Origin: a virus
Taxonomy: Duplodnaviria; Heunggongvirae; Uroviricota; Caudoviricetes
Strand: one strand, 5' to 3'
IMG/VR virus record: IMGVR_UViG_3300028886_000047
DNA: 64,000 bases
Both the position numbers and the translations under genes were made by a program. This document shows, one piece after another, positions 40,920 to 40,979 of the stretch. A model generated the notes under the pieces. That model was not told the origin of the DNA. It ran no database searches and was given only the letters and a program-made list of their open reading frames with translations. Position 1 is the stretch's first letter, and every line of letters starts with the position of its first letter.

Positions 40920-40979
40920 ATACCTGACCATCGAAATTTCTAGGTTTCGTCTTAATTTTCAAAGACTCATCAGAGGTAT
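40920..40979 (-). ncRNA. hammerhead ribozyme (type I)
   Basis: AUACCU-CUGAUGA-GUCUU(loop)AAGAC-GAAA-CC...GGUC^AGGUAU: intact core, 6-bp stem I, 5-bp stem II, GUC triplet. Confidence 0.85.

Follow-up and report, generated by a model that had tools for sequence, protein, structure and literature searches.

A conserved type I hammerhead ribozyme in the early leftward transcription unit of a crAss-like phage

Our analyses have identified the minus-strand segment 40920–40979 of a crAss-like gut or rumen phage as a type I hammerhead ribozyme which, judged from its own sequence and those of its relatives, is genuine and evolutionarily conserved, as an earlier note on this DNA had proposed. The segment is part of a 64,000-nucleotide stretch of DNA (IMG/VR virus record IMGVR_UViG_3300028886_000047; Caudoviricetes) that is referred to below as the window; no close relative was detected in the phage collection by a megablast search with 24 kb of it. 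The ribozyme is quite probably functional and would split the leftward early transcript of the phage co-transcriptionally, thereby uncoupling the upstream genes from the message that follows. Its identification adds a well-supported self-cleaving ribozyme, of predicted activity, to the early operon of a crAss-like phage.

All of the hammerhead core nucleotides are present on the minus strand from 40979 to 40920, both in the sequence as read and in its alignment to the Rfam model Hammerhead_1 (RF00163), which matches the segment end to end (model positions 1–45) with a score of 27.9 bits. Stem I is open while stems II and III are closed by loops, which is the type I topology, and the standard pairs adjoining the core are G-C (10.1–11.1), A-U (1.1–2.1) and A-U (15.1–16.1). 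The 13 core positions, stems I and II, the proximal pairs of stem III and an A at position −7 (i.e. 7 nt 5' of C3, just outside stem I) are all intact. The hammerhead consensus places the predicted cleavage within GUC/A, at the same bond that the earlier note had named. The minimum free energy fold of a 71-nt segment is exactly the hammerhead fold; this fold is not more stable than those of shuffled sequences (z −0.42) because the ribozyme is AU-rich. The coordinates of the ribozyme, its parts and the features that surround it are summarized in Table 1.

Table 1. Features of the ribozyme and of the leftward unit around it (window coordinates)
Feature	Position	Strand	Basis or remarks
Type I hammerhead ribozyme, complete	40920..40979	minus	sequence read, RF00163, model R1; sole descriptor match in the window
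Stem I, 5' strand AUACCU	40979-40974	minus	6 bp with AGGUAU
Stem I, 3' strand AGGUAU	40925-40920	minus	pairs with AUACCU
Core strand C3-A9, CUGAUGA	40973-40967	minus	sequence read
Stem II GUCUU/AAGAC, 5 bp, with 8-nt loop UGAAAAUU	40966-40949	minus	G10.1-C11.1 present
Core strand G12 A13 A14 A15.1 (GAAA)	40948-40945	minus	sequence read, RF00163
Stem III	40945-40927	minus	A15.1-U16.1, C-G, C-G, UA/GAU internal loop, G-C, loop AAAUUU
U16.1	40927	minus	core position
Predicted scissile bond, C17 (40926) / A1.1 (40925)	40925..40926	minus	consensus GUC/A
Conserved unpaired A, 7 nt 5' of C3; candidate tertiary contact	40980	minus	family comparison; putative role
ORF A, first conserved gene of the leftward unit, ~151 aa from MAQT start	42281..42736	minus	ORF list
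ORF B, conserved, 194 aa provided that TAG 41479-41481 is read as stop	41482..42063	minus	95 homologue clusters
Hairpin-rich non-coding stretch, ~460 nt	40980..41440	minus	between ORF B and ribozyme
Inserted, mostly non-coding cassette, ~515 nt	40400..40915	minus	absent from L191
Conserved 128-nt leader	40272..40399	minus	precedes the next conserved gene
Next conserved gene, ~174 aa, function not assigned	39747..40271	minus	homologues

A default Rfam scan at gathering thresholds reported tRNAs only and no hammerhead. When 501 nt were compared with all 4227 families using permissive filters in E-value mode, the match to RF00163 had an E-value of 9.1e-5. The gathering score of this family is 34, a curation threshold and not a biological feature, and the default scan missed the ribozyme of the window since 27.9 bits lies below it; the score falls short because of the long loop II and the insertion in stem III. 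A descriptor of type I hammerheads (viz. the core, at least 4 bp in stem I, at least 3 bp in stem II and at least 2 bp in stem III beyond A15.1-U16.1) has 1 match in the window against an average of 0.027 in dinucleotide-preserving shuffles, and an equally good match was found in none of 300 shuffles. A covariance model (R1) trained on 23 other phage sequences, with the window excluded, scores 61.9 bits at the site (E 2.1e-20), the runner-up in the window reaching 14.6 bits. This score and the covariation described below place the element in a real and widespread ribozyme family.

A blastn search of the phage collection gave matches that are confined to the core and stem II and that lie in intergenic DNA of Suoliviridae crAss-like phages, where every neighbouring gene is on the strand of the ribozyme. 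These Suoliviridae hammerheads share their stem-loop II with the window, their stems I and III differing in sequence but remaining complementary, and one is permuted to type III. The 30-mer consisting of CUGAUGA, stem-loop II and GAAAC has exact copies in at least 117 viral contigs, and also in 32 genome assemblies, mainly metagenome-assembled genomes of gut Clostridia together with those of Bacteroidales, Elusimicrobia and others. Among the matches listed, 100 of the 112 unique copies are complete type I hammerheads with a stem I of 5–6 bp, and these 100 parsed copies contain 48 distinct stem I and 78 distinct stem III sequences. All 5 of 5 stem I pairs are formed in 98 of the 100 copies, compared with 9.5 when the partners are permuted. 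In a gap-free alignment of 23 members (A1), 96.4% of the cells are paired and the covariation is 0.577, as against 0.119 in shuffled alignments and at most 0.077 with slid partners; no shuffle out of 500 was as high. Stem II is invariant across the family and is thus uninformative for covariation.

Two positions flanking stem I are also conserved in this family. Among 85 dereplicated members, 83 have the A at −7 that is also found in the window, and 81 have a purine at −6 (A in the window). The invariant loop II and the conserved A(−7)/purine(−6) suggest a contact between the stem I flank and loop II, although no covariation supports it. A pseudoknot of loop II with an upstream U-run was also considered: it can be drawn in several crAss-like copies but is absent from the related contig L144, and it is not claimed here. 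Several further observations were made on members of the family. In L024, L030, L097 and L068 a conserved hairpin (ACACUGGUUCGUGAGAAUAGGUGU and variants) is located 20–45 nt upstream of the hammerhead, whereas the window is without it. The Suoliviridae genome L004 (NC_055904, cr273_1) has, at ~2500–2545 on the minus strand, a copy with CUGAAUGA that carries a one-base core insertion after A6, a place at which an insertion is associated with low activity (Perreault et al., 2011; PMC3088659). Unannotated intergenic ribozyme clusters are present in the reference Suoliviridae genomes at 1851–2769 of L003 (NC_055889, cr53_1), 3835–3907 of L001 and 3487–3542 of L004, among them two hatchet ribozymes, RAGATH-14, a hammerhead of type III whose stem-loop II is the same, a hammerhead of the RAGATH-1 subtype and a weak match to twister-P1.

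The location of the ribozyme is conserved as well. Of the 10 related contigs that are long enough to judge, 9 have a hammerhead on the same strand and at the equivalent place, 350–700 nt after the homologue of ORF B; four of the nine are of the window's subtype and five are of the RAGATH-1 subtype. At this distance, and with the same orientation, L144, L187 and L191 have the window's subtype, and L183, L188, L189, L190 and L145 have RAGATH-1. L146 and L147 also have a RAGATH-1 hammerhead, although here the site is anchored by the downstream gene only; L182 has no hammerhead at the site, and L181 is not informative as the contig ends before it. The RAGATH-1 scores at the syntenic site are 56.1 bits in L145, 44.5 in L147 and 38.3 in L146. 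The occurrence of a hammerhead of either subtype at one shared site points to conservation of the cut at this site, with an exchange of the ribozyme sequence between the two subtypes. The ribozymes of L187 and L191 are ~97% identical to that of the window, with differences only in the loops, while the flanks beyond the edges of the element do not align and the ORF B proteins are 76–77% identical; the L144 copy departs from the window's at a single stem III pair, and its distal helix is longer. In 8 of the 9 ribozyme-bearing relatives an ATG is located 22–30 nt past the cut, following an A-rich leader, and the genes behind the cut in these relatives are mutually unrelated. In L190 the ribozyme is just upstream of the conserved gene without any cassette, and in L191 only ~15 nt separate the hammerhead from sequence that matches the conserved leader of the window (40396–40364). 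The layout of L191 implies that 40915–40400 of the window is an insertion a few nt behind the ribozyme. The idea that the ribozyme travels together with a downstream cassette was rejected, since L190 and L191 have the ribozyme without the cassette and the L191 copy is ~97% identical to the one in the window.

The earlier note had placed the ribozyme near the head of a leftward transcription unit, where its cleavage would separate the first GC-rich genes from the rest, and both statements agree with our analyses. The site is ~2 kb inside a unit that starts at an AT-rich divergent region (~42911–43155), on the other side of which a gene resembling replication initiators runs rightward from 43156; a tRNA with a CUA anticodon is found at 44403–44478. 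The site is downstream of two conserved, GC-richer genes, ORF A and ORF B, so a cut there would part both of them from what follows. ORF A is 80% identical in DNA to L144, and genes of 145–151 aa occupy the equivalent place in relatives. The homologues of ORF B (95 clusters, 46–97% identity) are ~192–222 aa in length, and these lengths fit a TAG stop, pointing to the use of the standard code in this early gene. The GC-rich early genes of the phage may be host-derived. A 65%-identical homologue of ORF B (L185, 3501–4082) was also observed in an apparent bacterial chromosome, next to an alcohol dehydrogenase, an aldo-keto reductase, an IS transposase and a HepT/MNT pair. Pfam and PHROG searches with the flanking ORFs, including ORF B, gave no match. 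All of the flanking conserved genes are on the minus strand and, as ORF B and the gene at 39747–40271 are both among them, the ribozyme is on the coding strand. A scan for sigma-70 promoters and terminators gave sites not above those in shuffled sequences; the promoters of Bacteroidota and of phage RNA polymerases are outside its model.

The hairpin-rich stretch upstream of the ribozyme has a minimum free energy of −132.8 kcal/mol compared with −86.0 for shuffles (z −7.9) and includes a ~20-bp perfect stem around 41100–41240; L144, L191, L187 and L182 share the ~200 nt of it that are closest to ORF B, whereas the ribozyme-proximal part (~41270–40990) is not conserved. The cassette downstream of the ribozyme folds with a z-score of −1.9 and holds only one ORF, of 37 codons (40494–40384, ending in TAG). 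No homologues of the cassette ORFs were found, and a tblastn comparison of the small ORFs past the cut with the genes located behind the ribozyme in relatives detected no similarity and no remnant. Within the cassette, an element of ~112 nt (40724–40835, minus strand) is 92% identical to 2494–2606 of L145, the proteins of which are only ~71% identical to those of the window. It forms three hairpins with one compensatory change from C-G to U-A, has no Rfam match, and was found by an exact-pattern scan only in L145, a contig already known. The 128-nt leader beyond the cassette is 72–80% identical in DNA to L144, L145, L146 and L147 and 88% identical to L191, which is more conservation than is expected of a spacer, and it may therefore be a structured 5' UTR element. 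The gene that follows it has homologues with 51–71% identity in three viral contigs and 43% in L182. Further downstream, 38043–38163 (minus strand) gives a weak RAGATH-12-like match (24.5 bits compared with a cut-off of 75) in a stretch that is 77–82% identical to L024, L030 and L145, and it is possibly another conserved small RNA.

Hammerhead ribozymes cleave by attack of the 2'-OH of C17 on the phosphate at its own 3' side, producing a 2',3'-cyclic phosphate on the upstream product and a 5'-OH on the downstream product, and in a type I hammerhead the catalytic fold is retained on the upstream product. Transcription of the leftward early unit would thus be followed by folding of the RNA into three helices around the core and by self-cleavage through internal transesterification after C17. 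The upstream product would consist of ORF A, ORF B, the ~460-nt hairpin tail and the whole ribozyme, ending in a 2',3'-cyclic phosphate, and the downstream product would begin with a 5'-OH at A40925. Cleavage in vivo, which we infer from these features, would uncouple the stability and translation of the upstream genes from those of the next message; this message would start 22–30 nt past the cut in most relatives, whereas in the window the ~515-nt non-coding cassette intervenes. The hairpins upstream could terminate some of the transcripts before the ribozyme is reached.

Hammerheads have been known in phages since 2011, when it was proposed that they turn long transcripts into gene-length messages (Perreault et al., 2011; PMC3088659). 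In the same work, three prophage hammerhead clusters were found to cleave ~2-kb polycistronic transcripts in vitro, and the authors cited the case of a halovirus hammerhead located 13 nt upstream of a start codon, for which the mapped 5' end is within 3 nt of the cleavage site. The layout of ORFs across the family of the window's ribozyme, in which the stop codon of an upstream same-strand ORF is at most 5 nt from the ribozyme in 44 of 100 copies and a downstream ORF starts within 60 nt in 58 of 100, lends support to this view of gene-length messages. For the window itself, the benefit to the downstream message is less obvious, as no gene starts just past the cut. It is possible, although on balance improbable, that the main task of the ribozyme is to generate the 3' terminus of the upstream unit and not a new 5' end for a message downstream; this terminus would be compact, capped by a cyclic phosphate and resistant to 3' exonucleases. 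The type I ribozyme would stay whole on the 5' product, the 460 nt upstream of it are exceptionally structured and partly conserved, and nothing gene-like is found past the cut in the window; the constant feature, however, is the start codon, 22–30 nt past the cut in relatives or at most 60 nt past it in more than half of the family copies, and the tail next to the ribozyme is the part that is not conserved. The two roles are compatible with each other, and the ribozyme may provide a protected 3' end upstream, an unstructured and short 5'-OH leader on the downstream RNA, or both; an uncoupling of the upstream genes from the next message remains our preferred reading.

Stem III, which had been described as 3 bp plus an irregular extension, proved instead to be a conserved internal-loop module that recurs in other phage hammerheads. 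The module, CCUAG...CGAUGG, is present in 25 viral contigs (L122–L143) from both AT-rich and GC-rich phages, and it is common to type I and type II hammerheads, the flanking helices of which vary. Its simplest pairing consists of C-G, C-G, a bulged U, U-A, an A-G mismatch and G-C; between its arms there is usually an additional Watson-Crick hairpin, or merely a GNRA tetraloop. A K-turn was considered for stem III and rejected, since a G-A/A-G tandem beside a 3-nt bulge does not fit on either strand. In an alignment of the close subfamily (A4; ten module-bearing hammerheads, the window included), 97.5% of the cells are paired and the covariation is 0.389 compared with 0.102 in shuffled alignments, with double-sided changes in 5 of the 6 stem I pairs. 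N7 is U, A or C in the relatives while the remaining positions of CUGAUGA are invariant, and in L144 the C-G pair beside A15.1-U16.1 is replaced by U-A. No match above the Rfam gathering threshold was obtained in the four module-bearing contigs tested, so that copies of this kind are left unannotated by default.

The distal part of stem III is minimal in the window, where the last G-C pair closes a 6-nt loop in place of the 7-bp A-U helix of L144, and cleavage could for this reason be slow. This shortening, the lack of an ATG-led conserved gene within 30 nt such as eight relatives have, the sub-threshold Rfam score and the ability of L182 to manage without a ribozyme, which makes the element dispensable, would all suit a decayed relic that lost a useful cleavage rate and has been kept by linkage since the 515-nt insertion and the shrinkage of stem III. 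We regard such a relic as very unlikely, because the 13 core positions, stems I and II, proximal stem III and A(−7) are all intact, because the ribozyme has stayed ~97% identical to those of L187 and L191, changing only in its loops, while the sequence past its edges became unalignable, and because stem III arms joined by a tetraloop only exist in L134 and L143, which makes a short distal stem III a normal variant. Similarly improbable, in our estimation, is regulated cleavage, in which the UA/GAU loop or the invariant loop II would bind a phage or host factor as part of a timed programme of RNA processing. The conservation of the module sequence across type I and type II hammerheads and across AT-rich and GC-rich phages, while the surrounding helices vary, could be read in this way, and regulated cleavage of phage hammerheads has been raised as a possibility (Perreault et al., 2011; PMC3088659); against it, no partner has been identified, the module is present in just 4 of the 100 copies of the stem II subfamily, and the same ribozyme occurs in several phyla without any sign of recoding. 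A chance motif in AT-rich DNA, for which the Rfam score below gathering, the unexceptional fold energy and the very large number of DNA stretches screened might be adduced, is refuted by the E-value of 2e-20 from an independent model, the 0 of 300 shuffles as good, the exact 30-mer identity with at least 100 covarying hammerheads and the syntenic conservation of position.

The proposal that the ribozyme belongs to an RNA-processing programme of a recoded phage is not borne out by these comparisons. The same module is found in many contigs and in several bacterial phyla, and the close relative L182 is without the ribozyme; no link between the ribozyme and TAG recoding was found, nor any covariation or co-occurrence with a suppressor tRNA.

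The ribozyme of the window is a well-supported but fairly ordinary phage hammerhead, and general knowledge of hammerheads is unchanged by it alone. The novelty that the analysis offers is modest and concerns the stem III module, the A(−7)/loop II signature and the variable cargo behind a fixed ribozyme. Two features may perhaps be undescribed, although we consider this doubtful: a tertiary design of the subfamily that combines the invariant stem-loop II, an unpaired A on the 5' side of stem I and, in some members, the UA/GAU loop (in type I and type II hammerheads, and missed at Rfam thresholds); and the use of the ribozyme as a fixed 5' border behind which genes and RNA cassettes are swapped, with cleavage insulating the newcomers from the structured RNA upstream. 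Our literature search found no description of a conserved UA/GAU internal loop in stem III, the JAR3D paper being without a hammerhead entry, and nothing on hammerhead ribozymes in crAss-like phages or on the literal stem II sequence. As default Rfam thresholds miss both the copy in the window and the phage hammerheads that share its module, ribozymes are under-reported in phage annotation. The variable content behind the ribozyme (viz. small genes, an RNA cassette or nothing) also makes these phages a convenient natural system for studying the role of intergenic hammerheads in the downstream message.

Several known systems resemble the ribozyme of the window. Hammerheads in the 5' UTRs of fungal and plant RNA viruses are of type I and are located just upstream of an ORF, the translation of which is promoted by self-cleavage and not by the sequence itself (Lopez-Galiano et al., 2026; PMC13725137); they act in eukaryotic hosts, in the cap-independent translation of RNA genomes, and for a phage they provide an analogy only. 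The HHphage ribozyme of the haloviruses HF1 and HF2 (Perreault et al., 2011) has the same arrangement of a ribozyme followed by a start codon as eight relatives of the window, but it belongs to viruses of an archaeal host and has a core variant that needs high salt, and in the window the start codon has been displaced by the insertion. RAGATH-1 (RF03152) is found at the position of the window's ribozyme in related crAss-like contigs. It too is a type I hammerhead, with an A-rich leader and a start codon behind it; it differs in having a very short stem II that pairs with the loop of an upstream hairpin, whereas the window has a regular 5-bp stem II and no such hairpin, and with a score of 18.5 bits against RF03152 (cut-off 56.3) the ribozyme of the window is not a RAGATH-1. 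The ribozyme of the window also resembles the type I hammerheads of phages and prophages (RF00163, clan CL00010; PMC3088659), which have the same core and the same three-helix topology with an open stem I, are also intergenic and on the coding strand of polycistronic units, and have been proposed to play a similar role in cutting transcripts. It differs from them in belonging to a subfamily with an invariant stem-loop II and a conserved A located 5' of stem I, and in the conserved UA/GAU loop of its own stem III.
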